A stretch of 64,000 bases of DNA from sequence record LR597660; one strand, written 5' to 3'. The position numbers were made by a program, and so were the translations under genes. Below the pieces are notes generated by a model. The model did not search any database. It saw nothing but the letters and a program-made list of their open reading frames with translations, and was not told where the DNA came from. This DNA is from Escherichia phage T4_ev151. Positions within the stretch are counted from its first letter, which is position 1. Every line of letters starts with the position of its first letter. Shown here in pieces: positions 23,324-48,941 of this stretch.

Positions 23324-24288
23324 TGTATTCTTTAGAGGAATTTAATAATCAAGCAATAAACGCAGATTTCCAACGTAATAATATGTTTAGCTGCGTTTTT
23401 GCAACAACTCCATCAACTAAAAGCTCTTCGTTGATAAGTTCAATTAGCAACTTTTCTTATAATAACTTGGGCCTAAATTCAGATTGGTTAGGATTAACTC
23501 AAGGCGATATTAATCAGGGAATTACCACGCTAATTACAGCTGGCACACAAAAACTGATAAGAAAATCAGGGGTTAGTAAATATCTTATTGGTGCCATGAG
23601 TCAACGTACAGTTCAAAGTTTATTAGGCTCATTTACAGTTGGTACATATTTAATTGACTTCTTTAACATGGCATATAACTCATCTGGATTGATGATATAC
23701 TCTGTAAAAATGCCAGAGAATAGATTATCCTATGAAACTGACTGGAACTATAATTCTCCTAATATTCGTATAACTGGGAGAGAATTAGACCCTTTGGTTA
23801 TTTCATTTAGAATGGATTCAGAAGCTTGTAACTATCGTGCAATGCAAGACTGGGTTAACTCTGTTCAAGACCCAGTAACTGGATTGCGTGCTTTGCCACA
23901 AGATGTCGAGGCAGATATTCAGGTTAATCTTCATTCTCGCAATGGATTACCTCATACTGCGGTGATGTTCACTGGATGCATTCCAGTGTCAGTGAGCGCT
24001 CCTGAGTTATCATATGATGGAGATAACCAAATAACTACATTTGATGTTACTTTTGCGTATAGAGTGATGCAGGCTGGAGCAGTTGATAGGCAAGCTGCGC
24101 TTGAATGGCTTGAATCTGCTGCTATAAATGGTATTCAAAGCGTTCTTGGAAATAGTGGAGGTGTTACTGGACTATCTAATTCGCTTTCACGACTTAGTAG
24201 ATTAGGAGGGACTGCAGGAAGCATTTCAAACATTAATACTATGACAGGGATTGTCAATTCGCAAAGTAAAATATTAGGAGCAATATAA
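23323..24288 (+). CDS. 54: Baseplate tail tube initiator gp54
   Basis: 321 aa (T4 gp54 is about 320 aa); start overlaps the gp48 stop. Confidence 0.9.
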   Translation: MYSLEEFNNQAINADFQRNNMFSCVFATTPSTKSSSLISSISNFSYNNLGLNSDWLGLTQGDINQGITTLITAGTQKLIRKSGVSKYLIGAMSQRTVQSLLGSFTVGTYLIDFFNMAYNSSGLMIYSVKMPENRLSYETDWNYNSPNIRITGRELDPLVISFRMDSEACNYRAMQDWVNSVQDPVTGLRALPQDVEADIQVNLHSRNGLPHTAVMFTGCIPVSVSAPELSYDGDNQITTFDVTFAYRVMQAGAVDRQAALEWLESAAINGIQSVLGNSGGVTGLSNSLSRLSRLGGTAGSISNINTMTGIVNSQSKILGAI

Positions 24289-24292
24289 CAAT

Positions 24293-24321
24293 GGGGACCT
24301 TTCGGTCCCCATATTTTTATT
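24293..24321 (+). terminator. Rho-independent terminator after gene 54
   Basis: GGGGACC-TTTC-GGTCCCC hairpin (24293-24310) followed by ATATTTTTATTT. Confidence 0.8.
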
Positions 24322-24607
24322 TACGGAATGAAATGAAAGCAGAAACTGAAGCAACTAAACTGTCTTCAATATAAACTTCAATTTTTACCGGAGCTTCTGA
24401 CTCAAATTTACCTGTTACTACACCCTGAAAAATACTTTCAGTTTGTTCTGGCTTTGAAAAATTTTCAGAAGGAAAAATTCCGAACTTTTTATCTGTTCCA
24501 AAAATTTTAATAAATTCATCGTAAACTGCTTCATTAAAAGCATTATCAGCAGGAATAACGCCTTCAACTACAAGTTCTTGACCCAAAAAGCGCAAAGAAG
24601 ATTTCAT
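24317..24607 (-). CDS. Hypothetical protein, 96 aa (alt.-3 position)
   Basis: ORF with GAGGA RBS supplied by the 54-bp promoter cassette; MKSSLRFLGQELVVEGVIPADNAF... Confidence 0.6.
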   Translation of the reverse strand: MKSSLRFLGQELVVEGVIPADNAFNEAVYDEFIKIFGTDKKFGIFPSENFSKPEQTESIFQGVVTGKFESEAPVKIEVYIEDSLVASVSAFISFRK

Positions 24608-24614
24608 TTTGTGT

Positions 24615-24668
24615 TCCTCATGTTATGTCAGTAAGACTACTATAACACAACACGAGGGACTTGTAAAC
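24615..24668 (-). repeat. 54-bp exact repeat, copy A: early promoter, leader and Shine-Dalgarno cassette
   Basis: Identical to 38248-38301. Minus strand: GTTTACA (-35), 17-nt spacer, TGtTATAGT (extended -10), leader, GAGGA. Confidence 0.85.
24639..24668 (-). promoter_or_regulatory. Sigma70-type T4 early promoter inside repeat copy A
   Basis: -35 TTTACA (24667-24662), 17-nt spacer, -10 TATAGT (24644-24639) with upstream TG. Confidence 0.65.
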
Positions 24669-24843
24669 TACATTTTGAACTTTTTAGTACGCGTAATAGG
24701 CATGCGTCGATTTTATACTGTTTCATTGTTTGAAGAGCAGTATCAAAAACAGCATTAATGACACCAATTGGATTTCCACCCAAGTTTTTAAGCTTAACTA
24801 ATGATAGTTTCTCATTAACACCTATCATTACGATATGCATCAT
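24640..24843 (-). CDS. Alt N-terminal domain paralogue, distal fragment (alt.-2 position)
   Basis: 67 aa; MMHIVMIGVNEKLSLVKLKNLGGNPIGVINAVFDTALQTMKQYKIDACLLRVLKS aligns with Alt residues ~63-118. Confidence 0.55.
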   Translation of the reverse strand: MMHIVMIGVNEKLSLVKLKNLGGNPIGVINAVFDTALQTMKQYKIDACLLRVLKSSKCSLQVPRVVL

Positions 24844-25025
24844 TTTGTCGCCTGGTTTAACGTTTTATCTGTATCACCGCCAGAGGTGTATGTACAAAAT
24901 CTAAATCCAGGAAGCACGCTTTCTTCGCCGGCTTGAATAGCAAAAATTTGTGGTATTTTATGCTTAGGATTTAAGTTAACAACCGGCGCCGAAGCGCCGT
25001 CAAATAATTCTGTAATAAGTTCCAT
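24840..25025 (-). CDS. Alt N-terminal domain paralogue, proximal fragment (alt.-1 position)
   Basis: 61 aa; MELITELFDGASAPVVNLNPKHKIPQIF...CTYTSGGDT aligns with Alt residues 1-55; RBS AAGGA; stop overlaps the next ATG (ATGA). Confidence 0.6.
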   Translation of the reverse strand: MELITELFDGASAPVVNLNPKHKIPQIFAIQAGEESVLPGFRFCTYTSGGDTDKTLNQATK

Positions 25026-25028
25026 GAT

Positions 25029-27116
25029 TTATCCTTGAACGAACTTGTAAGGCATATTTGTAATATCTATGCAAGACGCAATAATTCCAAGAGATGATTC
25101 TACTTTCTGTTTAACATTTGACGAAACAAATGATGCAAAGTCAACTCTATTTTCTATATAGCCTGTCATTGTAACCAATTCACCAGTTTCCATTAAACGG
25201 TCTCCGTCATAGATTACCGATTCGGTGAGTTCTTCTGTGGTCATAACTTCAGCTTGAATGAGTTTTGTATTATTAGATGTTGTTCCGTCATTATTAGAAG
25301 CATCAGTTATTTTATTAACTTTGACCATCAATCCACGCGGTAGAATAACTTCAGCTTCAGTTGCTATTCCGAGATTTCCTGGATATACAACATTAACTTT
25401 ATGTGCGCCGTCAATAGCCCATCCTATTTGAACTTTAACGTATTCAGGATTTTCTTTATACGCTCTTATTTCGTTTGGATTAATAGTTATTCCTTCTTCA
25501 TTTTTATCAACTGTTAATTCATTGCGAGCTTCTGGTTCTAAAAGACCAATACCAGCATGTGTAATTCCAAAACGTCCAAAAATGATAGGAGTTAAAGAAG
25601 TAGATACAAAATTTCTGAAATAGAATACTTTATTTTTAACTAGTGCTTCGTATATAGGAGCAGTCATACTTTGAGCACGATAAACTGTAATGCCTTCTGG
25701 TATACGATCACCATTTTCAAAAGCATAATCTAAATTAGTTATAGCAGCTTCAATTTCTTTTTCACTCATTACTTCATAACGTTCTGGATCATAACGACCC
25801 AAAAGAAGATTATTGATGTCAGTATACCCTGAACCACAATACTCTCTAATGCCGCGCTTTTGTGATGGAGTATATTTAGAACCATCACGGGCAATAGTAA
25901 TATCAATCATTGGACCTGCACCAATTCCAGAAAAACTATAAATCATTCTTTTGAGGAATTTAGTTTTTGCTGCGTTCCAGGAATTTTTAGTCATTTCTTC
26001 CCAGACTTCATCTGGCTGCCCTTTACGAGTTTTATTATGTTTATCAAGCCAATTATCTTTATATTCTTCAAAGAGTTGATTAACAGCTGCTGCGTATTTC
26101 TCTAAACATTTTATTGAAGTAGTTGGTTCATTTTTAATTGCATTAAAAATTACTTCTTTAATTTTTTCTGAAACTTCACCGACTTGACTCATTGGAAAGA
26201 ATTTATAATCATAGTGAAGTTCATCTGCCGTTCCTTCAGCAATAATTTTTGCTGCCTTTGTTTTAGAAGCTAATGAATTAATTCCAATTTTCATTTCTTC
26301 TGCTTCGGGAATTAAAGGTGCAGTAGCTGGTTTATTAAAATTAGCTGCTGTAGATTCATACTTCTGGAATAATTCACTTTCAAATCTAGAAGATTCCAAT
26401 GATTGACTTTGCGCAATTGCTCTACGGGAAATTTTAACTTTAACGATTACAGCTTGGTCAGAACGTTTATCATTTTCTTGTGCAATAGATGCTGCAATTG
26501 CCTCATTTTTAGTTACTTGAGCTCCAGTATCTTTATTGATGTAAACATCGCCGACTTTCGATTCAACTTTAGTAAAGAGCTCGGTACTAATTTCCGGAAC
26601 TCCTGGAATGTCTTCTAGTGATACATTTTTGCGATGTATAAGAATATATGCATACTTTTTATCATAATCCCAGAGTTCCTTAAGAAGGACGTATCTGCCA
26701 CCTGAACGGCTACGGATAAGTCTATCAGCAATAACTTGAATTTGTCGAGCTTGACCAGCGGTTTTAGACTTAAGAATACGAAGCATACAAGCATCAATTT
26801 TATACTGACGCATTGTTTGCATTGCAACAGTAAAAACTGAATTGATATAATTAATTGGGCTTGGACCAAGACCTTTTAATTTAGCAATTGAACCTTTAGC
26901 AGTTAATGTAAAAGGAACAATGTGCATCATTTTATCGCCCATCTTTAAATCGCGATTAGTATCACCTCCAGATGTATAGGTACATAAACGAAAGCCTGGT
27001 TGTTCAATTGCATCATCAACATGAACTGAAAAAATTTGCGGTATTTTCTTCTTTGGATTTAAGTTTGTAATCGGAAGAGTAGTATCTTCGTCAAATAATT
27101 CTGTAATGAGTTCCAT
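25029..27116 (-). CDS. alt: Alt, virion-packaged ADP-ribosyltransferase
   Basis: 695 aa (T4 Alt is about 682 aa); MELITELFDEDTTLPITNLNPKKKIPQIF... Confidence 0.9.
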   Translation of the reverse strand: MELITELFDEDTTLPITNLNPKKKIPQIFSVHVDDAIEQPGFRLCTYTSGGDTNRDLKMGDKMMHIVPFTLTAKGSIAKLKGLGPSPINYINSVFTVAMQTMRQYKIDACMLRILKSKTAGQARQIQVIADRLIRSRSGGRYVLLKELWDYDKKYAYILIHRKNVSLEDIPGVPEISTELFTKVESKVGDVYINKDTGAQVTKNEAIAASIAQENDKRSDQAVIVKVKISRRAIAQSQSLESSRFESELFQKYESTAANFNKPATAPLIPEAEEMKIGINSLASKTKAAKIIAEGTADELHYDYKFFPMSQVGEVSEKIKEVIFNAIKNEPTTSIKCLEKYAAAVNQLFEEYKDNWLDKHNKTRKGQPDEVWEEMTKNSWNAAKTKFLKRMIYSFSGIGAGPMIDITIARDGSKYTPSQKRGIREYCGSGYTDINNLLLGRYDPERYEVMSEKEIEAAITNLDYAFENGDRIPEGITVYRAQSMTAPIYEALVKNKVFYFRNFVSTSLTPIIFGRFGITHAGIGLLEPEARNELTVDKNEEGITINPNEIRAYKENPEYVKVQIGWAIDGAHKVNVVYPGNLGIATEAEVILPRGLMVKVNKITDASNNDGTTSNNTKLIQAEVMTTEELTESVIYDGDRLMETGELVTMTGYIENRVDFASFVSSNVKQKVESSLGIIASCIDITNMPYKFVQG

Positions 27117-27139
27117 TATATCCTCTCTAGTGTTTATTC

Positions 27140-27147
27140 TATTTATA
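27140..27147 (-). promoter_or_regulatory. Late promoter box TATAAATA on the minus strand upstream of alt
   Basis: Plus TATTTATA at 27140-27147, 24 nt upstream of the alt ATG. Confidence 0.6.
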
Positions 27148-27152
27148 AAATT

Positions 27153-27170
27153 AAAGGCCCGAAGGCCTTT
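27153..27170 (-). terminator. Hairpin terminator between gene 30 region and alt
   Basis: AAAGGCC-CGAA-GGCCTTT palindrome; on the minus strand it is followed by AAUUUUAU. Confidence 0.55.
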
Positions 27171-27357
27171 AATAATCTATTGGTAAGAGAGTACGATATA
27201 TTTCAAACTTTGGACCTTTTTCATAAGCATCAAAAGTTTCTGTGAATTTATTATAAGCATATGCATCTATAAATTCAATCATGATTTGTGATACAGAAGT
27301 AGAAACATCTCCACCTTCTTTTTGAGCCACGACAATTGTTTCTAAGTAAGCTTTCAT
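27169..27357 (-). CDS. Hypothetical protein, 62 aa
   Basis: ATG overlaps the DNA ligase stop (ATGA), suggesting translational coupling. Confidence 0.5.
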   Translation of the reverse strand: MKAYLETIVVAQKEGGDVSTSVSQIMIEFIDAYAYNKFTETFDAYEKGPKFEIYRTLLPIDY

Positions 27358-28817
27358 AGACCAGTTACCTCATGAAAATCACCAAATACATCTTCGAATG
27401 TATTAGCTTTAGTTTTATCTTCACGTAAACGAATCGCAATCGGAAGAAATAATTTAACGTAATCAGTGCGGCCATCAGATTTTAACCAACCGTTGCATTC
27501 GCACTCTAGAATTTTTCCAATATAATAATTTTGGTTTTCCATAATGCGAGTACGGTCAAGTTCATGTGATTTTACACCGGCTTTATCTTTTAAGCCTGAA
27601 CCAGCATTCACCTTAATTTTTCCACACTCTGACTCAAGAATAAATCCACCTGCTTTAGTAGGGTCTTTACGGTGAGGATAAATTCCTACAATTTTTAAAT
27701 CAACATCAATTACTTCTTTAAATTTATAGAGATTTTTTGAACGAGCATTTTCCCATAATCCATCGATATTTTTGAGAATAATACCTTCAAGACCTTGGTC
27801 AATATACTTTTTATAAATTACCTTAGCTTCATCTAGGTTATTTACTACTTGGTTTTCAATTAAAATTACTTTATCATAACCTGATGTCATTTGTTCTAAT
27901 TTAGAAAAACGGACATCATATTTCAAACGAAATGTAGGAAGACCGTATATTTCTATCAACGGTACATAATCCCAGACCTGAAACTTCATGCATTGTGCTT
28001 CTTTTTCAGAAATTGTTCCCTTTAAAGATTTATTGGCGATGCCATTAGAAGCAGTACGTGATTCAGCTACTTCGGCGAATTCTTTAGCTTTACTATTTTC
28101 AGGATAAGCATCAAAAAGAAAATCTAGGCCTTCTGGCTCCTTTTTAACTTGCTCATGGTATACCAATTCGCCATCAATTAACACACCTTCTGGATGAATC
28201 TGGCGGGCTTCAGCGGTCATTTTGATTAACTCTTCCTTAAGAAGATCTAATCCTAGGTATTCATTACCAGCTCGTGATAAAAGACGAACATCATCTAATT
28301 CATCACCTCTGACTTCAGCAAAGCACCGAGCCCCATCAGCTTTTAACTGGGCAAAGGCTGGAAATTTGATATTCTTATTAATGCCTTTTTCATCATAAGA
28401 ACTTGCAAGCATTTGAGGTTGTTCAGGAATTAAACCTGGCCAAACTTTGTTTGCAATAGATACTGAAGCACCACATTCAAGGTCTCGCATCATCACTCGA
28501 CGCAAAACTTCAACATCATCTTTTTTACCATCGGTGATATATCCAGTTAATTCCTCAATTGCTGCATTTCCAGTCAATTTCCGAGTAGCTAACGTGAATT
28601 CAATAAAATCAAGCATATCGGTAAGAGTCAACATTCCAAAACTCTGGGTAGCAATACCAGGTTTAGGCCATTTCTTGATATAATACTGTAACCCACGAGA
28701 ATAAGTCAGACGATATACTCGTTTAAGCAATTCATTATCTTTATTCTTTTCAAGAATTGCTTGCTTCTGCTTAGTTGAACCAATAGATGCTATTTCGTTC
28801 AGAATTTTAAGAATCAT
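27354..28817 (-). CDS. 30: ATP-dependent DNA ligase gp30
   Basis: 487 aa, same length as T4 DNA ligase; adenylation lysine motif in ...FAQLKADGARCF... Confidence 0.95.
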   Translation of the reverse strand: MILKILNEIASIGSTKQKQAILEKNKDNELLKRVYRLTYSRGLQYYIKKWPKPGIATQSFGMLTLTDMLDFIEFTLATRKLTGNAAIEELTGYITDGKKDDVEVLRRVMMRDLECGASVSIANKVWPGLIPEQPQMLASSYDEKGINKNIKFPAFAQLKADGARCFAEVRGDELDDVRLLSRAGNEYLGLDLLKEELIKMTAEARQIHPEGVLIDGELVYHEQVKKEPEGLDFLFDAYPENSKAKEFAEVAESRTASNGIANKSLKGTISEKEAQCMKFQVWDYVPLIEIYGLPTFRLKYDVRFSKLEQMTSGYDKVILIENQVVNNLDEAKVIYKKYIDQGLEGIILKNIDGLWENARSKNLYKFKEVIDVDLKIVGIYPHRKDPTKAGGFILESECGKIKVNAGSGLKDKAGVKSHELDRTRIMENQNYYIGKILECECNGWLKSDGRTDYVKLFLPIAIRLREDKTKANTFEDVFGDFHEVTGL

Positions 28818-29083
28818 TGTTCATCCTTTAGAGTTTGGTTTACAGCTCTATTATAAATCAATTCATCATTAAGCTCAGTCAAAGACCTGTGGTACGTTGT
28901 TCTAACTTTATTTCCTTGCATCCAGTGCTTGACGTAAATGAAACCTTGCTCTACACATTTTTTAAAAATTCGTTCGTCTTTTTGAGCTCGGAATTCTGGA
29001 TTGCATCTAAAAAATTGATTTACGTGACCGTAATCACGTGTAGTATTACCTTCATTTTCATAAATAGTGTGAACAACAAACAT
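28814..29083 (-). CDS. Hypothetical protein, 89 aa (30.1 position)
   Basis: ORF coupled to its neighbours on both sides (TAATG upstream, ATGA with gene 30). Confidence 0.6.
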   Translation of the reverse strand: MFVVHTIYENEGNTTRDYGHVNQFFRCNPEFRAQKDERIFKKCVEQGFIYVKHWMQGNKVRTTYHRSLTELNDELIYNRAVNQTLKDEQ

Positions 29084-29919
29084 TAGAATGCTCCTTGGAA
29101 AATATTATCACCACTAGTAGGTCTATTATACAAATACTCTATGCCACCGGGTTTAATATAATTCCATGTCTGAAACGGATGCGTCTGATATGGATGATAT
29201 GGATTATAAGGATTAAATCCAGGAGTTCTCCAGGTAGTGTTCCAAGGAAAAGAATCGTTTTTAATCATCTTCTCGATTGCATCTTTTATAGCTTTTTCAC
29301 TATCAAAACTTTCTTTATTTTCCTTCGGTGAAAAAAGCTTATTTTCTACATCATTCCATGTATAAACTCGCTGTGCAGTTTTTGGAATACTGTCACGCTC
29401 CCCTCGAGCCATCCAATAAACAGGAACATTTAATATTTCACTCGCGTGATCGCAGTGGTGAGCGAGATCGTCAATATAACAAATTACGTTATATTTTTCT
29501 TTTGCCTTTTTGAACAGCTCTTCTTTTGAAGAATCATGACCACACATCATTACTTCTGAGAAGGCACCAGGAAAAAGAGCATTCAAATTAAATTGACGAT
29601 TCAGCAGAGCGTCAATAGAATCACCCAATGCTGTAACAGCTACAAAATTATAATCTTCTTTTAATTTGTTAATTACACACAGAGCATCTTTATATGGAGA
29701 CAAGTAACGAATAAAATCTGAACGATTGTATTTTTCAATTAACTTGACGCCAAGTTCTTCATCACAATTAAAGAGTTTACCAGGAGAAATAAATTTCTCA
29801 TCTTGGATCATTTTTAAAATATGTTCTAACGGAAGATTATATTTCTGAGCAAAATAAGGAAGACCTGATTGCCAGCTTAAACATACTCCATCAATATCAG
29901 TTAAAATAGTAGGCTTCAT
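29083..29919 (-). CDS. HAD-superfamily hydrolase-like protein with Pro/Tyr-rich C-terminal tail (30.2 position)
   Basis: 278 aa; N-terminal DIDGV motif (HAD motif I) and downstream YIDDL; C-terminus has NPYNPYHPYQTHPFQTW repeats. Confidence 0.65.
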   Translation of the reverse strand: MKPTILTDIDGVCLSWQSGLPYFAQKYNLPLEHILKMIQDEKFISPGKLFNCDEELGVKLIEKYNRSDFIRYLSPYKDALCVINKLKEDYNFVAVTALGDSIDALLNRQFNLNALFPGAFSEVMMCGHDSSKEELFKKAKEKYNVICYIDDLAHHCDHASEILNVPVYWMARGERDSIPKTAQRVYTWNDVENKLFSPKENKESFDSEKAIKDAIEKMIKNDSFPWNTTWRTPGFNPYNPYHPYQTHPFQTWNYIKPGGIEYLYNRPTSGDNIFQGAF

Positions 29920-30380
29920 AGAGAGTCTCTTAATAGGTTTAACACATCAATAAATTCAGCTTCGGTTAGTATTGTATCATCTTTTGTTAGACCACTAGCC
30001 ATGCTGTGCTTCAAAACTTTTCCTTTCGAGGCTAGTAATGCATCACGAAAGCCCTTGTTTTGGATTGCTGCTTCAAAATATGCATTTGTGTATAATTCTT
30101 TCCACGCTGGGGAGTATCTTGAAAACGGAACTCCAAGCCAGAAGAGGGTCCCACGGTCCTGAGCTCTAGCATAAGACCTTCCAGCTTGTTGGGCGGCAAG
30201 CCCGGATAACCCAAATATACGTCTTTGCTGTTCAACATTTTTCACCTTACATCCTTGGAGGAATCCTTCAAGACCTCCAAATTGAATGCCATCCATAACG
30301 AAAGGCCATTGGGCAAAATTACTTAATGCACATGATGGCCATTTAAAATTGCTTCTAATCTCTAACTCAGACATTTTCAA
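29916..30380 (-). CDS. YbiA/NADAR-like domain protein (30.3 position)
   Basis: 154 aa; family assignment is from recollection of the conserved pattern (WPFVMDGIQFGGLEGFLQGCK...), not a search. Confidence 0.5.
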   Translation of the reverse strand: MKMSELEIRSNFKWPSCALSNFAQWPFVMDGIQFGGLEGFLQGCKVKNVEQQRRIFGLSGLAAQQAGRSYARAQDRGTLFWLGVPFSRYSPAWKELYTNAYFEAAIQNKGFRDALLASKGKVLKHSMASGLTKDDTILTEAEFIDVLNLLRDSL

Positions 30381-30573
30381 TACTTATAATTTCAACATCA
30401 GCCCAATGACCATAGTTTGGTAGACGAAATTCAACTGGCCAGTCACTGCCTTTTTCTAATATAATAGACTTAACTTGTGGTTCTTCGTGTTCATCAGTAT
30501 ACGGATTTTTATCTGTTACTTTATATGTTACCTTAATGTACTGAATTCCAAAAATCTTATTAATTATATTCAT
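30367..30573 (-). CDS. Hypothetical protein, 68 aa
   Basis: ORF in the tightly packed 30.x cluster, overlapping neighbours. Confidence 0.5.
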   Translation of the reverse strand: MNIINKIFGIQYIKVTYKVTDKNPYTDEHEEPQVKSIILEKGSDWPVEFRLPNYGHWADVEIISIENV

Positions 30574-30767
30574 ACTAATTCCTTTAATCCGTAGATAGGA
30601 GATAATTCATCACCCATACGAAGGTCTTCATTCCCATCTACCCAAGAAACAATATAAGCCTCTTTTACTTGAACATCTCCCAATTTAAATGCGGGTAAAA
30701 CCTTAGAAATTAATCCAGGTATACCAACTCCCTTTAATTCAACAGTTTGGCCTAAAAAGAATTTCAT
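30570..30767 (-). CDS. Hypothetical protein, 65 aa
   Basis: ORF in the 30.x cluster; ATGA overlap with the upstream ORF. Confidence 0.5.
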   Translation of the reverse strand: MKFFLGQTVELKGVGIPGLISKVLPAFKLGDVQVKEAYIVSWVDGNEDLRMGDELSPIYGLKELV

Positions 30768-31054
30768 TAAAACCTCATCTGAAAACCATGCGATTTAACA
30801 TTACCGCCATTAATATCAGAACTATTAATTTCACGTGCAATTGAGGGATCAATGTCAATTTCGCCATTAAGTTTAATGATAGACAAAGTATCACGCCCAT
30901 TTACTGTGCGGAACTCTAAAGGGCAGACTGCATTAACATAGTTTTTAATCGATTCACTGGTAGGCTGCAAATGAGCAGGAAGGTCTTTAGGCGCCTTTGA
31001 GAAAACTACTTCACAGAAATTTTTGCGGGTGTCAAAATAAGTAGTCATAAACAT
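30767..31054 (-). CDS. Hypothetical protein, 95 aa
   Basis: ATG at 31054 with GAGGA RBS; the track ORF start at 31105 would run through the hairpin at 31072-31085. Confidence 0.55.
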   Translation of the reverse strand: MFMTTYFDTRKNFCEVVFSKAPKDLPAHLQPTSESIKNYVNAVCPLEFRTVNGRDTLSIIKLNGEIDIDPSIAREINSSDINGGNVKSHGFQMRF

Positions 31055-31094
31055 AATATTTTCCTCAGTAAGGGGCCGAAGCCCCTGTTTTATT

Positions 31095-31472
31095 TTAAAT
31101 ATCAAATTCGTTAAGAACTACATCAAAGATTGCTTCAAGATGCTCAGGTTTAGCTTTGTTACTCAGAATATGACGAATCCAAGTTTTAACCAGAAGCTTA
31201 CGATTGACGCCATTCCAGCAAGGATGAGTCCCTAAATCACGTTGACGAAAATCATCATCCAAAGCGATTTTAAAAGAAGAACCTTCTTTCGTGATTGAAA
31301 CCGTGATGCCATTTTCAAATCGCATATAAACGTAATTAGGAGTCATATACTGTTCAATTTCGCATACTGATCCATTTTGATGTTTCCAAAGGCAGATAGT
31401 ATCAATAGAACCTGCAATACCATTAGAAACATATTTACGTTCAAAGTTGATGTAGTTCATTTTATTCTCCAA
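31095..31472 (-). CDS. Hypothetical protein, 125 aa
   Basis: ORF with an intergenic spacer upstream; MENKMNYINFERKYVSNG... Confidence 0.6.
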   Translation of the reverse strand: MENKMNYINFERKYVSNGIAGSIDTICLWKHQNGSVCEIEQYMTPNYVYMRFENGITVSITKEGSSFKIALDDDFRQRDLGTHPCWNGVNRKLLVKTWIRHILSNKAKPEHLEAIFDVVLNEFDI

Positions 31473-31527
31473 GATGTTTAATTGCGGTACAGGTATATAA
31501 TATCATATCCTGTACCAAAGTAAACAA

Positions 31528-31860
31528 TTATTTTACTACTTTCCAATGTTGCATGTCAAGTTTACCAACTTTTTTCATCTTCTCAATTAAGCGTTCTGCA
31601 CGTTGGCGAGCTGTAACATAATGCCATTCGCCTAATTCATTTTGTTCAATTTTTCCAACGATTACTGTATTCAATTCATAAATCCAACCAGTAAAGAAAT
31701 TATGAACTTGAATTGTAAAGGTGAAATCTGTTCCCATACCTTCTGTTGTTTCTACTTCAATAATATCACCTTCAACTGCCATTAAGAACCACATAGTTTC
31801 ATTATATTTACCATTGAAGCATTTAGTTTTAACTGTAGCGTTCAGATTAATCGTTTTCAT
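31528..31860 (-). CDS. Hypothetical protein, 110 aa
   Basis: ORF with RBS AAAGGAG; candidate early promoter upstream. Confidence 0.6.
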   Translation of the reverse strand: MKTINLNATVKTKCFNGKYNETMWFLMAVEGDIIEVETTEGMGTDFTFTIQVHNFFTGWIYELNTVIVGKIEQNELGEWHYVTARQRAERLIEKMKKVGKLDMQHWKVVK

Positions 31861-31887
31861 TTTATTCTCCTTTGTTTGTGTAAGATA

Positions 31888-31917
31888 ATACTATCACAAA
31901 GGAGCTATACTGTAAAC
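31888..31917 (-). promoter_or_regulatory. Candidate early promoter
   Basis: Minus strand GTTTACA, 17-nt spacer, TAGTAT; lies just downstream of the terminator at 31941-31965. Confidence 0.4.
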
Positions 31918-31940
31918 AACTTTGTGCAATCTTTGGAAAA

Positions 31941-31965
31941 TAAAAAAGGACTCCCGAAGGAGTCC
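31941..31965 (-). terminator. Strong rho-independent terminator on the minus strand
   Basis: GGACTCC-TTCG-GGAGTCC hairpin (31948-31965) followed on the minus strand by TTTTTTATTTTCC. Confidence 0.8.
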
Positions 31966-31970
31966 TCAAC

Positions 31971-32147
31971 TTATGCTTTCTGCTTACCAAAACGAGAAGC
32001 ATCATCTCGAAGAACCGCACGTGCTCGGCGCATGATCTTCTCAACAGTTTGATTGATACGAGAGTTCGACCCACGCTTGTAACCAGCGCGTTTAGAATCA
32101 CCAACTTTCTTTTCAACTGCTTTCTTTGCTTTAGCTTGTTTTGCCAT
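31971..32147 (-). CDS. Small highly basic protein, 58 aa
   Basis: MAKQAKAKKAVEKKVGDSKRAGYKRGSNSRINQTVEKIMRRARAVLRDDASRFGKQKA from ATG 32147; track ORF extends to an upstream non-ATG start; terminator follows. Confidence 0.5.
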   Translation of the reverse strand: MAKQAKAKKAVEKKVGDSKRAGYKRGSNSRINQTVEKIMRRARAVLRDDASRFGKQKA

Positions 32148-32435
32148 TATAAATTCTCTTTTAAATGAAAATGCAGGACTTATTGGCATTGCCTGCGCAA
32201 GCCCTCAAGGGGAACATAGGTTTTGAATATTTACCGACAGGATAACCATAAACCTCGTCATCATACCACCAAGACTTACACAGATAACACTTTTCTGACG
32301 CATGATAGTAACATTCAAGAGGTACACCATAAAACTGCCGGGGTCTTAAAACTATAATGATTCGCAAATCATTAATCAGACAGTTCGATGGCTCCTCGAT
32401 TTTAGCTCACACTAAGGCAGTGAATCTCCAATAAA

Positions 32436-32684
32436 TTACTTCAGTGTTACCACAAAGTGACGAACTGCTTTTCGTGCAGCAGAAGCCAAAGGCTTAGCAT
32501 ATTTAAGTTCATCTTTTTCCTGAAGCTCAGCAGCTAATGCAGTTTGAGCAGGATTCAGATGTTTGAAATAACGCAGGATTTCAAGAGCTTCGGCTTCAAC
32601 ATCAATAGATGCGCCATAGTTTTCGTGACCATTATTCCATGCGTTTCGTTGCAGTTCAAGAGCGTGTTGTAATTGTTTAATCAT
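32436..32684 (-). CDS. rIII: Probable lysis inhibition accessory protein RIII
   Basis: 82 aa, same length as T4 RIII; positioned just downstream of gene 31 as in T4; a late promoter box lies between them. Confidence 0.6.
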   Translation of the reverse strand: MIKQLQHALELQRNAWNNGHENYGASIDVEAEALEILRYFKHLNPAQTALAAELQEKDELKYAKPLASAARKAVRHFVVTLK

Positions 32685-32823
32685 TTAAAAATTCTCGTTA
32701 GAGATTAAAACTCGGTAGTCACGTTCTTCTGAATTTCATCTTCTTTCGACAGATCTCTCAGTTGTAGACTACCACATAGAATTGTTCGGTTAACTTATTA
32801 TTCCGACACCCAATTCATATTAT

Positions 32824-32831
32824 TATTTATA
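32824..32831 (-). promoter_or_regulatory. Late promoter box TATAAATA on the minus strand between gene 31 and rIII
   Basis: Plus TATTTATA at 32824-32831, abutting the gene 31 stop codon. Confidence 0.5.
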
Positions 32832-33167
32832 TCACTTATAAAGACACGGAATAGCTTTATAGTGACAAGTGACGAATTTTTGTTTAATTTCTTTTGGCTG
32901 CTTAAGACCCAGAGCTACAAAAGGATGTGGAACATTTCGAATTTGACCAACTGGAAGAGAAGTCAAATCACCAACTTCGCAGAAACCTTCAGGAACATCA
33001 GGACCGACAGAGTGAACTACACATAGTTCAGGAACTTCACCTTGAACACGTTTACCGATAATAAGTCCTGATTCTGTAACTTCTTCATCACCAGCCTGTG
33101 CAGGTTCAGAAACTAAAATAACATATTCACCGACAGCACGAATTGGTAGCTGTTGTACTTCAGACAT
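32832..33167 (-). CDS. 31: Co-chaperonin gp31 (GroES analogue for capsid protein folding)
   Basis: 111 aa, same length as T4 gp31; [30 protein letters not shown]... Confidence 0.92.
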
Positions 33168-33223
33168 CGTTTTTCCTTTTTGTTAACAGATGAATTAATA
33201 ATAACAAATAATTCTTAAAGCAT

Positions 33224-33532
33224 TTATTTACCAATAATTTGAAGCAAATGCTCAACTTTCATACCATTAACAGAAATCAATTTGTCAATAGAAAAACCTC
33301 GCCATGCGCCAAGTTCAACATCAAATACTGGAATCATGTCAGTAGATTCTTTCCGAGTAGATTCAGTCAATTTACCAGTTTGCATGGTTGGCATAAAGTC
33401 TGCATCACGAGTACCTTTCATAATACGAATAGTACCATCAGATTTTTCAAAAACTACGTTTGAAACACCCATGGACAGTTTAGTTTTCAAAATTTCGCGA
33501 ATTGCTACTTTCTGCTCAGTTGTCAGTTTCAT
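33224..33532 (-). CDS. Hypothetical protein, 102 aa (31.1 position)
   Basis: ORF with RBS, downstream of gene 31. Confidence 0.6.
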   Translation of the reverse strand: MKLTTEQKVAIREILKTKLSMGVSNVVFEKSDGTIRIMKGTRDADFMPTMQTGKLTESTRKESTDMIPVFDVELGAWRGFSIDKLISVNGMKVEHLLQIIGK

Positions 33533-33769
33533 TTATTTACCTATTACAGTTTTAATATGAGTTGTTCCACGTTCTTTAAGGGTGGAAAGTAATTTTTGGC
33601 ATTTTTCTAAATCAGATTTCCAACTATATGGTCTATCAATACTAGTCCAATCAGTTTTATAATACTGTTTCCATTTAGAGAAAAAATATTTCTTATACTC
33701 TACAGCAAACGAGATGTTCTCATTAGAATAAGAACTAATTGCTGTGAGCTTTACCAAACGAAATTTCAT
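33533..33769 (-). CDS. Hypothetical protein, 78 aa (31.2 position)
   Basis: ORF whose ATG overlaps the cd stop. Confidence 0.55.
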   Translation of the reverse strand: MKFRLVKLTAISSYSNENISFAVEYKKYFFSKWKQYYKTDWTSIDRPYSWKSDLEKCQKLLSTLKERGTTHIKTVIGK

Positions 33770-34350
33770 TATTCACCACAGAATTCGTTGATATTTTCCC
33801 AGTTTAACTTATTCAAGTTTTTCTTAGGAACATTAAACACTTCAATACCTGCATTTCGCAGAATATCATCCCAGCCAGGTTTATTTTTATCGTATGTTTC
33901 GCAATAAACCAGCTTTTTAATACCAGATTGAGCTATTGCTTTTGCACAATCTGGACAGGGAGAAAGTGTTACATACATAGTAGCACCTTCAATAGAAGAA
34001 CCATTTCGTGCAGCAAACAAAATTGCATTTAGTTCAGCATGAATTTCATTTTTAGACGACCATTCAGAGTGAGCGCTACGGTGTTCTTTCGCCAAGACAA
34101 AACGATCAGTTGAACCAAATGATACACATTCAGGCTTATGACCTTGGATGATAGTGTGTTTAGGCTTATTCAACAACCATCCTTGCTCAGCAGCATAATC
34201 ACAACAGTTCACACCCCCTGCGGGGGAACCATTATACCCAGTAGAAATAATACGTCCATTCTTTTCAATTACTGCTCCTACCTTCCAGGAGCAACATTTT
34301 GATTCTTGTGATACTAAATATGCAATTTGAAGTACTGTACTCGCTTTCAT
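33769..34350 (-). CDS. cd: dCMP deaminase
   Basis: 193 aa, same length as T4 Cd; zinc deaminase motifs HAELNAI and SPCPDCAKAI. Confidence 0.93.
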   Translation of the reverse strand: MKASTVLQIAYLVSQESKCCSWKVGAVIEKNGRIISTGYNGSPAGGVNCCDYAAEQGWLLNKPKHTIIQGHKPECVSFGSTDRFVLAKEHRSAHSEWSSKNEIHAELNAILFAARNGSSIEGATMYVTLSPCPDCAKAIAQSGIKKLVYCETYDKNKPGWDDILRNAGIEVFNVPKKNLNKLNWENINEFCGE

Positions 34351-34685
34351 TTCATAATCACCAGATAAGCAGATTTAGCAGTTTCAACACGATAAATTTC
34401 GTGACGAAGTTTAGTTATACTTTTAATAACAGAACTAATTATATTCTGCCCATCTTTAAAGCGGTTTTTCTTATCAATAAAAATTGCGCCAACCATCTTT
34501 TTGTGAAGCTCAACTGGATACTTCGTCACAATAATAGCATCATATACAGAAGGATGAATACTATTTACTAGAGTGTCATTCATTAAAGTTATTCTAATAA
34601 ACTGTGCTGTTTCAGAGTCAAGCGCTCTATGATCGCCAGTATCATTTTCAAGACAATTATCAATTATATCAGTTAAATTCATCAT
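34347..34685 (-). CDS. Hypothetical protein, 112 aa (cd.x cluster)
   Basis: ORF with ATGA overlap to cd. Confidence 0.55.
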   Translation of the reverse strand: MMNLTDIIDNCLENDTGDHRALDSETAQFIRITLMNDTLVNSIHPSVYDAIIVTKYPVELHKKMVGAIFIDKKNRFKDGQNIISSVIKSITKLRHEIYRVETAKSAYLVIMK

Positions 34686-34921
34686 AGTACGCCATACACC
34701 CTTTGTGCTTCAACTAATCCATCAAAATCCAGTTTAAGATGCGATATTTGATCGCCATCACCTGGATTCACAATTACTAATACTGAACGAGGAGTTTCGG
34801 TAATAACACGAACCGATGTTTCAGGAAATCGTTCAGAAACCTTATTTACCAATTCCTGAGCAAATAGTTTAACTTTTTCTTGGAATTCTTTAACAGTAAT
34901 TGGTTTTTCACTTAGCAGCAT
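34682..34921 (-). CDS. Hypothetical protein, 79 aa (cd.x cluster)
   Basis: ORF overlapping its neighbour by 4 bp. Confidence 0.55.
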   Translation of the reverse strand: MLLSEKPITVKEFQEKVKLFAQELVNKVSERFPETSVRVITETPRSVLVIVNPGDGDQISHLKLDFDGLVEAQRVYGVL

Positions 34922-34982
34922 TTTGTTTTCCTCATTTATTTGGTAGAGCTATAATATCACAACTCTACCGTAAAGTAAACCA

Positions 34983-35258
34983 TTAAATCGCTTTGAATTC
35001 CGCAGTTTGAGATTCAAAGCGAATGTCGCCTTTGATAACTAACTCAGCATCAAGACCGAATACGACAATGATATGCGCGGAACCTGGATACAGCGTAATG
35101 GCAACAGAATCCACCTGGTCTGGAAGCAAAGTGTTTAATACATGAGTCACTTGAGCATGGATTCGAAGTTCGGCTGCGTTATCAAGTTTTTCAAACATAT
35201 TATTAGCGATAATTTGGCTAAACACTACTTCTACGATTTTAGAATAAGTCGGAAACAT
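34983..35258 (-). CDS. Hypothetical protein, 91 aa (cd.x cluster)
   Basis: ORF with RBS. Confidence 0.55.
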   Translation of the reverse strand: MFPTYSKIVEVVFSQIIANNMFEKLDNAAELRIHAQVTHVLNTLLPDQVDSVAITLYPGSAHIIVVFGLDAELVIKGDIRFESQTAEFKAI

Positions 35259-35260
35259 AT

Positions 35261-35461
35261 TTACCTCACATAATTTTCTTCAAGCCAATCGATAACATCC
35301 AAAGCGTTATCAAAAGTTGAACCATCTACTTTGTCTTCTGTTTCATAATCAAGAACATCTAAACCTACTCTTCCATCAACAATAGGCCATAAACAAAATA
35401 GATATTTCTTTTCTTTTTCAATTTTATCACAAAGACGATAAATCTTTTCTAGATTATTCAT
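35261..35461 (-). CDS. Hypothetical protein, 66 aa (cd.x cluster)
   Basis: ORF tightly packed with neighbours. Confidence 0.5.
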   Translation of the reverse strand: MNNLEKIYRLCDKIEKEKKYLFCLWPIVDGRVGLDVLDYETEDKVDGSTFDNALDVIDWLEENYVR

Positions 35462-35650
35462 AAGTTTTCCATGGTAAAGGCAGTTTAGTTTTCTTTACTG
35501 TTAGTTCAACATCAGGATTCTTTTCTCTCAATTTAAGACATTCCTCCCAAGCTCTGATTTCACTAGTGAATACACAAAATTGCCCATTACTAGTACCGAC
35601 TAAACCACTATTTACAATAATAATAGCCCAAGTTTCATGATGCCACGCCA

Positions 35651-35651
<1 letters not shown>
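35454..35651 (-). CDS. Hypothetical protein, 65 aa (cd.x cluster)
   Basis: ORF whose ATG overlaps the pseT stop. Confidence 0.5.
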
Positions 35652-36869
<1,218 letters not shown>

Positions 36870-36873
<4 letters not shown>

Positions 36874-37106
36874 TTATTTTTCTCAACTAATGATTGAATA
36901 TAATCATGCAGATCTTTAGATGCCTTACCCCACTTATTTTGATATTCATTTTTAAGATTAGCACGTGATTGAGCTAATAAAACATCATTAGTTGGAGGTA
37001 AAGATTCTAATCGTTGAATCTGTCGTCCATAAATCATTGCAGCCATCTCGGATTCATAAATTAATCCTTTTAAATGTTCAAATTGATACCAAGAAATCAT
37101 TTGCAT
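36870..37106 (-). CDS. Hypothetical protein, 78 aa (pseT.x cluster)
   Basis: ORF overlapping its neighbour. Confidence 0.5.
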
Positions 37107-37396
37107 TTATCCTCTTTTAACTCTTGACGATAATAACATATCATAGTTTTCTGGTCGTGTACATATCGTTTTACATCATTAAGCCAAATACGAAATTCCT
37201 GAGAATCTTCAAATGGCATACCGACCCAAGCTTTACCATCAATAACTTTAACTTGCCAAGATAATTTAGCTTCGTCATATGACTTTATTTGTACAGGCCA
37301 ATTAGGATGAACTGTTTCTTTCTTTACTTCTAGAGGCTTTGTCGAACAACCAACTAGAAGACCAATAGATAATATTACTGCTGATAGTTTAATCAT
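37097..37396 (-). CDS. pseT.2: Outer-membrane spanin (o-spanin) lipoprotein
   Basis: 99 aa; signal peptide with lipobox LVGC (MIKLSAVILSIGLLVGCSTKP); adjacent to the i-spanin as in T4. Confidence 0.75.
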   Translation of the reverse strand: MIKLSAVILSIGLLVGCSTKPLEVKKETVHPNWPVQIKSYDEAKLSWQVKVIDGKAWVGMPFEDSQEFRIWLNDVKRYVHDQKTMICYYRQELKEDKCK

Positions 37397-37746
37397 TTAG
37401 AAAGGTCCTGGATGTCTTCTGCGAACTTGTTGAAGGAGTTGTTGATTTGTTTTTCAACCAATCCTGGCTTATGAGCCACCACATCCGCCTTCTTTGCGTC
37501 TTTGCGCAGTTTTTCATTTTCACGCTCAATAGCAGCAATTGCCTCACGATTTTTATTATTCATCGCGTCAATATAATTATACTGAATTCGCAAATTATTT
37601 AATGCTAAGGCGTTTTCATTGGCCGTTTTTGTAATTTCTACAACAGACGTTTCTAATCTTTCAATTTTATTTTTTAAAATTAAAGAAGTTCCGCCCAATG
37701 CAATTACAATTAATAGCAAGCCTGTTGTCGTATTACTTAATTGCAT
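37393..37746 (-). CDS. pseT.3: Inner-membrane spanin (i-spanin)
   Basis: 117 aa; N-terminal transmembrane helix (GLLLIVIALGGTSLIL) then a coiled-coil region; overlaps the o-spanin by 4 bp. Confidence 0.75.
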   Translation of the reverse strand: MQLSNTTTGLLLIVIALGGTSLILKNKIERLETSVVEITKTANENALALNNLRIQYNYIDAMNNKNREAIAAIERENEKLRKDAKKADVVAHKPGLVEKQINNSFNKFAEDIQDLSK

Positions 37747-38243
37747 AAAGTTTTAATAACCTCTATAATATCGTCTTGAGAAAGACCGTTAATTAAAATA
37801 TGATGTTCAGCCGGAGATTTAGAAATTTTAAAGCACGCCGCAACATCTTCTGCCATATCCGATGCGCTACGATTTGGATTACTAATTCCAAGACGATGCT
37901 TTCCTGTCAAAGGATTAACGATGATATAGCATTTGCAGCTATTGATATGAACATTAGGTTGAGTCTGATTAATAAACACTTCACAATCATACTTAGCGAG
38001 TTGATTTTCTAAAAAGACTTTCATCTCCTCAACCGCATCAGGAAGCATATCACGGGCTTGCTCAAGACGACGATTTCGATATTCTTTAATGGTCGTTTTC
38101 CGCTTGACTTGCTTAGCTAAATCTTTCTTAAGATCGGTGATATATCCAACTCGACGATTTCCTTTGAATACAGAAATCCCATCTGTAGTATCACCGTATG
38201 CTTCAACGACCATTTCAGTAGTAATAAGCTGCAAATCCATCAT
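37737..38243 (-). CDS. alc: Alc, inhibitor of host transcription on cytosine-containing DNA
   Basis: 168 aa (T4 Alc is about 167 aa); positioned between rnlA and the spanins as in T4; RBS supplied by repeat copy B. Confidence 0.75.
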   Translation of the reverse strand: MMDLQLITTEMVVEAYGDTTDGISVFKGNRRVGYITDLKKDLAKQVKRKTTIKEYRNRRLEQARDMLPDAVEEMKVFLENQLAKYDCEVFINQTQPNVHINSCKCYIIVNPLTGKHRLGISNPNRSASDMAEDVAACFKISKSPAEHHILINGLSQDDIIEVIKTLCN

Positions 38244-38247
38244 AAAG

Positions 38248-38301
38248 TCCTCATGTTATGTCAGTAAGACTACTATAACACAACACGAGGGACTTGTAAA
38301 C
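38248..38301 (-). repeat. 54-bp exact repeat, copy B: early promoter, leader and Shine-Dalgarno cassette upstream of alc
   Basis: Identical to 24615-24668; lies between the rnlA stop (38305) and the alc ATG (38243). Confidence 0.85.
38272..38301 (-). promoter_or_regulatory. Sigma70-type T4 early promoter inside repeat copy B
   Basis: -35 TTTACA (38300-38295), 17-nt spacer, -10 TATAGT (38277-38272). Confidence 0.65.
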
Positions 38302-38304
38302 AGC

Positions 38305-39892
<1,588 letters not shown>

Positions 39893-48013: not shown

Positions 48014-48122
48014 TTTATTCTCCTTAGCAAGCTTTAATCAAAAGATATAAACAGACCAACATAACTGCTGCCATAATATAAGGTGCGAACATTTTCTTTT
48101 CTCCATTAGTTTTGATAGGGTA

Positions 48123-48152
48123 ATAGTATCACACTACTACCCTTCTGTAAAC
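48123..48152 (-). promoter_or_regulatory. Sigma70-type T4 early promoter
   Basis: Minus strand GTTTACA, 17-nt spacer, TGaTACTAT (extended -10). Confidence 0.55.
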
Positions 48153-48862: not shown

Positions 48863-48892
48863 ATAGTACCATAAAGCTTTATGCTTGTAAAC
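48863..48892 (-). promoter_or_regulatory. Sigma70-type T4 early promoter downstream of the gene 32 terminator
   Basis: Minus strand GTTTACA (48892-48886), 17-nt spacer, TACTAT (48868-48863); A/T-rich upstream element. Confidence 0.55.
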
Positions 48893-48914
48893 CGTTTTGT
48901 GAAAAATTTTTGAA

Positions 48915-48941
48915 ATAAAAAAGGGGACCTCTAGGGTCCCC
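48915..48941 (-). terminator. Rho-independent terminator after gene 32
   Basis: GGGGACC-CTAGA-GGTCCCC hairpin (48923-48941) followed on the minus strand by TTTTTTATTTC. Confidence 0.8.

Follow-up and report, generated by a model that had tools for sequence, protein, structure and literature searches.

The question raised by this locus is why exactly 54 bp, running from the -35 element of an early promoter to a Shine-Dalgarno (SD) sequence, should stand unchanged in front of two unrelated genes of Escherichia phage T4_ev151 (sequence record LR597660). The stretch analysed, called the window here, comprises 64,000 nucleotides; it belongs to a Tequatrovirus and is 97-99% identical to many T4-like coliphages. 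An earlier note on this DNA had described the repeat as a copied module of promoter, leader and SD, and had compared it with the cassettes proposed to shuffle genes among T4-type genomes. It overlooked a hairpin that pairs the promoter spacer with the SD, so that nearly the whole 54-mer is predicted to form one hairpin, and this pairing is the best explanation of why the repeated unit spans exactly the -35 to the SD. The two copies are probably paralogous sigma-70 early promoter cassettes whose SD-masking hairpin would limit translation to each gene's own early transcript, with a form native to alc (inhibitor of host transcription) copied to alt.-3. The interest lies less in the duplication than in a promoter-spanning hairpin, predicted to mask the SD, that covaries at alc across Tevenvirinae and recurs at other T4 early promoters.

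The duplication itself was confirmed by a repeat search (family D6, two copies in the window) and by base-by-base reading, with 54/54 identity between 24615-24668 and 38248-38301. Both copies read GTTTACAAGTCCCTCGTGTTGTGTTATAGTAGTCTTACTGACATAACATGAGGA on the minus strand. The borders of the identity are sharp, from the first G of GTTTACA to the last A of GAGGA, with unrelated flanks on both sides, and the expected number of exact 54-mer pairs by chance is 3e-22 given the base composition of the window. The copies lie 13.6 kb apart, with DNA ligase and gene 31 in the interval. In T4 itself the pair is present at 53/54, the difference being G40A in the alt.-3 copy. The two genes fed by the copies are indeed unrelated: the 96-aa open reading frame (ORF) at 24607 is alt.-3 and the one at 38243 is alc.

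Concerning the claim that this is a copied module and not convergence on a consensus, the comparison with other promoters agrees with it. The seven other early-type promoters of the window share 17-29/54 positions with the cassette, and 8-17/38 outside the consensus elements; among themselves or with the cassette, the window promoters have 17-34/54 in common. The promoters at 48152 and 48892, which had been given as examples sharing the consensus hexamers only, exist and have 26-27/54 positions in common with the cassette. When up to 12 mismatches to the 54-mer are allowed, the entire T4 genome (OZ035787.1) has just two sites, one exact and one with 1 mismatch, which contradicts the idea that all early promoters have the same 54 bp; among its 36 early-type promoters the median pair agrees at 25/54 and the next-best pair at 49/54.

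The layout on the minus strand, GTTTACA, 17 nt, TGT-TATAGT, leader and GAGGA, was found in both copies as previously described. The leader extends for about 13 nt after the -10 and is followed by GAGGA, 4-8 nt before the ATG. The following elements of a T4-type sigma-70 early promoter (Pe) are present in both: GTTTAC(A), a spacer of 17(+/-1) nt and TAnnnT, as well as an extended -10, with TGT directly 5' of TATAGT. Positions -40 to -44 read TAAAA (5'-AAAAT-3') at copy A, an A-rich, UP-like stretch, and AATCA (5'-ACTAA-3') at copy B, where three of the five are A and an A/T-rich run lies further upstream. The cassette agrees with the T4 early promoter as described (PMC2988021, PMC1524935), including the -35 motif GTTTAC at -36 to -31 and the T at -7 (PMC1524935). 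From this geometry, the transcription start is predicted at A37 of the cassette. The expression classes determined in T4 by transcriptomics and proteomics (PMC9697503) place alt.-3 and alc among the genes with early RNA and early protein; alt.-1 and alt.-2 count as middle genes whose proteins were not detected, alt counts as late, and for rnlA early RNA is combined with late protein.

On the sense strand, nucleotides 12-53 of the cassette are predicted to fold into a hairpin whose 18 bp include three G.U pairs and which has a bulge of 2 nt and GUCU as its loop. Its free energy is -22 to -24.4 kcal/mol and its z score -4.6 to -5.4, and 0/200 shuffled sequences were as stable. The promoter spacer that immediately follows the -35 (nt 12-25) makes up the 5' arm, and the leader with the GAGG of the SD makes up the 3' arm, leaving the -10 and the predicted start (nt 37) at the apex; the loop (GTCT, nt 32-35) lies between these two. 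Copy A folds at -22 kcal/mol (z -5.4), and before alc a unique downstream CTT adds four pairs (AAGTCC.../...GGACTT), giving -24.4 kcal/mol. RNA from the predicted start, on the other hand, is essentially without structure (0 and -1.8 kcal/mol). The antisense strand folds at only -12.8 kcal/mol (z -2.3), because the three G.U pairs turn into A.C mismatches, and this gap between the strands therefore points to the sense RNA rather than to duplex DNA. The fold is kept by the 11 natural variants of the cassette, all at -17 to -23 kcal/mol, with all four nucleotides of the SD core paired in 10 of them and three of the four in the remaining one, an alt.-3 variant.

A spacer-to-SD hairpin is found upstream of alc in seven genera, in which the sequences of the arms differ and their complementarity is kept. 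The arms are AGTCC(C)TCGTG / CATGAGGACT in Tequatrovirus, TCTCCTCAT / ATGAGGAGA in Dhakavirus, TCTCCGTTT / AAACGGAGA in Gelderlandvirus, TCTCCATTTGG / CCAAATGGAGA in Karamvirus, TCCTCATCAG / CTGATGAGGA in Jiaodavirus, TCCTCATTTCG / CGAAATGAGGA in Winklervirus and ATCCC-ATTTTG / CAAAATGGGGAT in Kanagawavirus CIP9, and the z scores of these hairpins range from -3.2 to -7.1. In folds made per sequence and anchored on the promoter geometry, spacer nucleotides 8-20 are paired in nearly all alc sequences, with two to four pair types per position, and the SD core is fully paired in every sequence compared except that of CIP9 (3/4 nt). In a structure-blind MAFFT alignment of four genera, 92.6% of the cells are paired, against 40-47% when the partners are slid; four pairs show double changes, and the covariation score was reached by 0/500 shuffles. 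It should be noted that MAFFT with RNAalifold on 10 alc cassettes predicted no structure, the 3' arms being aligned out of register. A covariance model built from the four genera found both copies in the window; it misplaced the bulged C of Tequatrovirus and mixed in antisense matches, and was not used for the pair counts.

In the six genera examined outside Tequatrovirus (Gapriver-, Dhaka-, Mosig-, Gelderland-, Karam- and Marfavirus), alt.-3 has a different promoter. There, GTTTACA(A) is followed by a small spacer hairpin with covarying stems of 4-6 bp, a purine-rich loop, (A)AGGA(A) or TGGAA, and no pairing with the SD (for example, ACCACA-AGGA-TGTGGT). A small spacer hairpin of this type recurs at three T4 promoters (OZ035787.1, 123737, 75235 and 70958). 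The gene orders rnlA-alc-pseT.3 and alt-alt.-3-gene 54 are held in every genus examined, the exception being a small extra gene between rnlA and alc in Gaprivervirus; it would appear that the interior of a promoter has moved, and not a gene.

Other kinds of element were considered for the hairpin and dropped. It is not an intrinsic terminator, as no U-run follows the stem, the next bases being CUUUAUGAUGG (alc) or ACACAAAAUG (alt.-3), and it was absent from the terminator scan. A protein operator was discarded because the arms covary rather than being conserved, and control by RegB because GAGGA lacks the GGAG target. No Rfam covariance model matched either copy at E <= 1 in a search of 24200-38600.

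The arrangement suggests how the two genes could be confined to their early transcripts. In the first minutes of infection, host RNA polymerase would start at about A37, and the resulting transcripts would carry the 3' arm alone, leaving the SD free for the translation of alc or alt.-3. RNA initiated upstream would carry both arms, fold and hide the SD. Such masked RNA could come from early and middle transcripts running through rnlA into alc, and from late alt mRNA running through alt.-1 and alt.-2 into alt.-3. In the stretches that separate alt..alt.-2 from copy A and rnlA from copy B, neither a terminator-like site nor a stable stem-loop was found; with the late-promoter motif TATAAATA at alt, read-through into both cassettes is therefore to be expected from the sequence. 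Translation of either gene would then be limited to the early RNA made from its own promoter.

As for the relationship between the copies, the 54-mer was found in 448 phage records, all of them T4-like, at no more than two places per record among the matches listed. One record with an apparent single copy was checked and has two, the central T27C of its alc copy leaving no exact 28-nt megablast word. All the instances recovered from IMG/VR and metagenomes sit before alt.-3 or alc. In IMG/VR, loci were retrieved by protein anchors (five per gene), while a 14-nt anchor gave about 100 matches, nearly all due to chance; the metagenomes were covered by a single scan with a 20-base anchored pattern, which gave eight loci. 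No third copy or third context was found among the genomes examined, the 448 records and the IMG/VR and metagenome matches. In nine genomes or contig sets the two copies differ by 0-4 nt and every variant is private to one copy, as with the G40A of T4, T27C at the alc copy, four differences in ZN18-like phages and three in OBRH01000009; no derived state common to both copies was seen in these nine. T27C is recurrent and restricted to the alc copy (L010, L125, L147, several Tequatroviruses); it changes the -10 from TATAGT to TACAGT and makes the hairpin slightly stronger (-23.3 kcal/mol). These patterns suggest one copying event before the radiation of the genus and independent drift since, with no apparent sign of ongoing gene conversion or of a mobile element. 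For the present window, it is proposed that neither copy has changed since the copying.

Probably, alc is the native site of the cassette and alt.-3 received its copy in the Tequatrovirus ancestor, a direction read from the architecture. At the alc locus the design would be old and maintained with compensating changes in at least seven genera; in the Tequatrovirus ancestor, about 36-54 bp of it would have overwritten the different promoter of alt.-3, by short-patch recombination or template switch bounded by motifs that both loci already shared, and both copies would have drifted independently afterwards. Copy A still has the end of the Alt reading frame as its left flank (TTCAAAATGTAG), as is seen in Dhakavirus, and the alt.-3 leaders of the outgroups already end in (A)ACATGAGGA; therefore, the unique transferred core would be about 36 bp. 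GTTTACA(A) and (AAC)ATGAGGA probably served as the junction homologies. In Mosigvirus LF82-5 (locus L020 compared with L019), the alc promoter resembles the phage's own alt.-3 promoter, GTTTACAAACAC..GGATG..TACTAT..ATCAACAACA(T/C)GAGGA, without an SD-masking arm. Here alc may have received the promoter of alt.-3, a replacement opposite in direction to that proposed for Tequatrovirus.

The T4 genome (OZ035787.1) was also surveyed for hairpins at other early promoters. Among its 36 early-type promoters, 16 have z <= -3 and 13 have z <= -4.5, values reached by 5% and 1.3% of random 62-nt windows, respectively. In 11 of the 36, all three scored nucleotides of the SD core pair upstream of the predicted start; alc and alt.-3 are among the eight strong cases. 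In this SD-masking class the fold of the sense strand exceeds that of the antisense strand in stability by 8-10 kcal/mol, and the predicted own-start RNAs lack structure across all T4 early-type promoters examined. The minus-strand positions listed for the genome-wide masking pattern are 138170, 135562, 126708, 80981, 70679, 37204, 40209 and 26967. Four other promoters on the minus strand of the window have spacer-arm hairpins (31858-31917, 31458-31525, 34919-34980 and 48090-48152; z -3.4 to -5.1). At 31917, CTCCTTTGTG pairs with CACAAA(CA)AAGGAG and would mask the SD; those at 31525, 34980 and 48152 enclose the -10 alone.

Judged by sequence likeness, alc and alt.-3 are the closest pair within a wider phenomenon of look-alike promoters in T4. 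Further pairs on the minus strand of OZ035787.1 are 143453/99842, at 49/54, and 126708/70679, at 46/54. Promoters including 130754/93375, 128148/50745, 70958 and 67544 were listed as paralogous families, with a shared leader of about 33 nt, TGGTACTATACAACTATCAACTACTGATACGGA, and the pair 130754/93375 shows apparently compensating stem changes (GATTA/TAATC vs GACTA/TAGTC).

Several points weigh against the proposed masking and its history, and two of them, KLB31 and the hairpins around the -10, speak for a hairpin that is real and selected but has another job, which we consider unlikely: RNase III-type processing, pausing or stabilisation of the upstream message at its 3' end on read-through RNA, the melting of a very strong promoter through an inverted repeat in the DNA, or the triggering of Rho-dependent polarity. 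The masking of translation on read-through RNA is a prediction from folding, and the start was placed by geometry, no T4 start-site map having been found in the literature search. Pairing was kept in 5/8 of the stem substitutions within Tequatrovirus, which is only weakly supportive. In Kanagawavirus KLB31 the alc hairpin stops short of the SD and leaves it free, in Mosigvirus alc has a promoter of the alt.-3 type, and in Gaprivervirus there is no promoter directly at alc. About half of the stable hairpins at T4 early-type promoters enclose the -10 alone with the SD free, as at the three window promoters mentioned above; they are near-perfect palindromes with almost the same stability on the antisense strand, which is what a palindrome in DNA would show, and with so many of them a function unrelated to the SD could underlie the whole class. 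Regarding the donor, the ungapped spacer identity with the outgroup alc and alt.-3 promoters (3-9/14 vs 3-6/14) does not discriminate between the two, and we infer the direction from the architecture and a gapped match. On the other hand, a job other than masking has against it a 3' arm that ends exactly on the SD in the cassette and at the alc of six other genera, with an anti-SD 5' arm that covaries. Moreover, the extra stability of the masking class on the sense strand is due to G.U pairs and speaks for sense RNA instead of duplex DNA, and without a U-run termination of the intrinsic kind does not come into question.

The likeness to the promoter early stem-loop (PeSL) cassettes of gene shuffling, suggested in the earlier note, was not upheld. 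That the repeat is such a mobile regulatory cassette, providing portable homology for the modular exchange of genes among T4-type genomes, seems quite improbable, although the look-alike promoter families of T4 would fit it, the proposed transfer would itself be an instance of promoter-promoter recombination, and next to copy A lies a variable spot, with either the complete second Alt paralogue or its remnants alt.-1 and alt.-2. What is lacking is the terminator stem-loop upstream of either copy: the 72 nt upstream fold like shuffled sequences (z +0.63 and -0.15) and the scan showed no minus-strand terminator there. The contexts are only two in all the records and matches searched, and the neighbours of alt.-3 and alc are kept in all genera examined. 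Excision between the copies would remove DNA ligase and gene 31, a loss that is probably lethal to T4 according to established T4 genetics, and no genome without the 13.6-kb interval was seen among those compared. A neutral relic, left by one illegitimate recombination, with incidental self-complementarity and an identity due to recency, would explain the degree of identity without any special force, since the 0-4 differences between the copies are in line with the 2-5% divergence of flanking genes in the genus. We nevertheless hold it to be very improbable in view of a hairpin far older than the duplication, which covaries across genera, has a z score of about -5 and is kept by the natural variants. 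Ongoing gene conversion, by which concerted evolution would keep the copies identical, could be invoked for the 54/54 identity here and the 53/54 in T4, where recombination is very active, but it is scarcely credible when each variant in those nine genomes or contig sets occurs in one copy alone.

If SD masking by the spacer holds for alc and alt.-3, it could be asked whether it belongs to a general rule of T4-type phages. By such a rule, of which the alc/alt.-3 cassette may be the clearest case, a large share of early promoters would lie in spacer-arm hairpins and about a fifth to a third of them would mask the SD on RNA begun further upstream, providing a genome-wide translational insulation that helps to define 'immediate-early' expression, with cassettes spread and swapped by short-patch recombination at the common -35 and SD motifs. 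We put this forward tentatively, as a possibility with the odds against it. No description of the spacer-arm hairpin as a general architecture of early promoters was found in the reviews searched. The evidence of swapping consists of the proposed copying to alt.-3 in Tequatrovirus and, possibly, of the opposite exchange in Mosigvirus, where alc would be the recipient; under this rule, untranslated read-through RNA may also feed Rho-dependent polarity.

The positions of the two cassettes and of the genes around them are collected in the table.

Table. Position of the cassette elements and neighbouring features in the window
Feature	Position	Strand	Basis or remark
Copy A cassette (-35, spacer, TGn/-10, leader, SD), before alt.-3	24615..24668	-	exact repeat
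Copy A -35 GTTTACA	24662..24668	-	sequence reading
Copy A extended -10 TGT-TATAGT	24639..24647 (TGT 24647-24645; TATAGT 24644-24639)	-	sequence reading
Copy A predicted start, A (cassette nt 37)	24632	-	promoter geometry
Copy A predicted hairpin	24616..24657	-	fold, -22 to -23 kcal/mol, z -4.6 to -5.4
Copy A SD GAGGA (GAGG paired in the predicted hairpin)	24615..24619	-	sequence and fold
alt.-3, 96 aa, function unknown, phrog_1739, ATG 24607, fed by copy A	24317..24607	-	T4 annotation
Copy B cassette, before alc, probable donor	38248..38301	-	exact repeat; architecture common to alc promoters of other genera
Copy B -35 GTTTACA	38295..38301	-	sequence reading
Copy B extended -10 TGT-TATAGT	38272..38280 (TATAGT 38277-38272)	-	sequence reading
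Copy B predicted start (A)	38265	-	promoter geometry
Copy B predicted hairpin, extended by the unique CTT	38245..38295	-	fold, -24.4 kcal/mol, z -4.9
Copy B SD GAGGA	38248..38252	-	sequence and fold
alc, inhibitor of host transcription, fed by copy B; ATGs 38243 and 38240 (T4 annotates the second)	37737..38243	-	ORF and T4 annotation
rnlA (gene 63), upstream of copy B	38305..39429	-	stop 4 nt before the cassette
alt.-2, remnant of about residues 64-120 of the second Alt paralogue	24640..24843	-	Alt profile match
alt.-1, remnant of about residues 2-61 of the second Alt paralogue	24840..25025	-	Alt profile match; repeat D12
alt, late gene, 695 aa	25029..27116	-	T4 annotation; late in T4 omics
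Late-promoter motif TATAAATA, 23 nt upstream of the alt ATG	27140..27147	-	motif scan
Bidirectional terminator-like hairpin between gene 54 and alt.-3; first terminator downstream of copy A	24291..24312	.	terminator scan

Upstream of copy A, the products of alt.-1 and alt.-2 match PHROG 802 at positions 2-61 and 64-120, and the T4 annotation likewise treats them as the remnant of a second Alt paralogue, which is full-length in many Tequatroviruses; what is left corresponds to its N-terminal 120 residues or so. The alt.-2 frame extends into copy A, where the TAG of TATAGT is its stop. Copy A therefore supplies the last 26 coding nucleotides and the stop of this ORF, that is, the nine codons counted earlier if the partial first one is included. 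In the genomes with the full-length paralogue, its TAG stop overlaps the G of GTTTACA, and the deletion joins about residue 120 to a point about 20 nt before the paralogue stop (...GTACTAAAAAG vs ...GTCTAAAAAG). A further repeat, 24998-25028 vs 27089-27119, was noted with these remnants.

Two other groups of repeats were observed in the window. Three tandem units of 288 nt lie at 11649-12512, the others being 82% and 76% identical to the first, and are probably repeated domains of a capsid-decoration-type gene. At 53639-54564 there are several families of imperfect direct repeats of 30-68 nt (ATTACTCC..AAAAAGCT, GAAATTGCTAC...), probably motifs of a tail-fibre gene.

Outside the genera with the masking hairpin, the region upstream of alc shows other arrangements. 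The Gaprivervirus phages VR25 and PSD2001 have a 77-aa ORF between rnlA and alc, annotated 'inhibitor of host transcription' like alc itself; its own promoter overlaps a G4/C4 stem-loop, and alc follows about 10 nt further. In Acinetobacter phage ZZ1, the promoter upstream of alc overlaps an 11-bp hairpin, AACCCATTATG/CATAATGGGTT, with a T-run after it. The 5' arm of this hairpin is the spacer and its 3' arm includes the -10 CATAAT; a terminator and a promoter are superimposed there.

Regarding the significance of these results, T4 is the reference system for timed phage gene expression, and the end of early protein synthesis despite upstream transcription is only partly explained; AsiA and ModA do not account for the early shut-off (PMC2988021). 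A promoter spacer that is also the anti-SD strand would be a very compact way of tying translation to one promoter. If the proposed masking is true, it offers a testable cis-acting reason for the early-only expression of Alc and Alt.-3 in spite of the rnlA and late alt transcription upstream. The locus would also be a dated and directional case of one promoter replacing another over a distance of 13.6 kb, the junctions lying at shared motifs of 8-10 bp; for annotation, the spacers of early promoters in T4-type phages could no longer be treated as free filler. Should the masking be wrong, what is left is an old and harmless 54-bp duplication in a very well-studied genome.

Among known systems, the cassette has the same -35 GTTTAC, extended -10 and early downstream genes as the T4 Pe (PMC2988021, PMC1524935), and an A-rich stretch upstream is clear at copy A. 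No mention of promoter-spanning inverted repeats was found in these two papers, the second having 0 matches for hairpin, stem-loop or palindrome. Neither the cassette sequence nor masking at early promoters was found in the literature searched; the near-identity of the two promoters may have been recorded before in Miller et al. 2003, in the Wilkens & Rueger tables or in the figures of Comeau et al. 2014, which lie outside that search.

PeSLs (Arbiol et al. 2010, PMC2839356; Comeau et al. 2014, PMC4122927) consist of a terminator stem-loop and an AT-rich stretch upstream of a promoter; they lie among variable ORFs, are credited with the insertion and deletion of genes via mini-circles, and have been described for the pair PST/T4, with the promoter consensus TTTACW-N17-TAYWAT (PMC4122927). 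The cassette shares with them a compact and recurrent unit of early promoter, SD and ATG, able to recombine with its paralogues, and it fits the consensus. It differs in that its predicted stem-loop overlaps the promoter and reaches the SD, in its two fixed contexts and in having no gene shuffling attached. Neither copy lies in a hyperplastic region; only copy A is near a variable spot, the Alt paralogue deletion, whose junction is about 20 nt upstream of the cassette. A genuinely PeSL-like layout occurs elsewhere in the window, where a strong terminator hairpin at 31946-31967 (GAGGACTCC-TTCG-GGAGTCCTT and a T-run) lies directly upstream of the 31917 promoter; the segment from its T-run to the -35 (31911-31949) is 77% identical to 48886-48924, upstream of the promoter 48892.

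The closest parallel is offered by four T4 genes, e, soc, 49 and I-TevI: the ribosome-binding site is hidden in their long transcripts and free in the RNA that an internal promoter supplies (PMC3014915). In that paper alc is not mentioned, and alt.-3 is not among its listed examples. As in those genes, transcripts started upstream of the cassette would place the SD in a helix, according to a predicted fold with a z score of about -5. The promoter likewise lies in the 5' strand and apex of the structure, and its own transcripts, from the predicted start, would lack the 5' arm. The structure is conserved among relatives in both cases, here in seven genera with covarying arms. The difference is one of timing. 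In e, soc, 49 and I-TevI the internal promoter is late (TATAAATA), the masked RNA is early and the late protein is delayed. No TATAAATA motif was found by the motif scan in or near the cassette, whose internal promoter is of the early sigma-70 type; the masked RNA would be the later or upstream-initiated one, and the protein would be confined to the early period. The cassette is a variant of the same device with its time logic reversed, and not a new kind of element.

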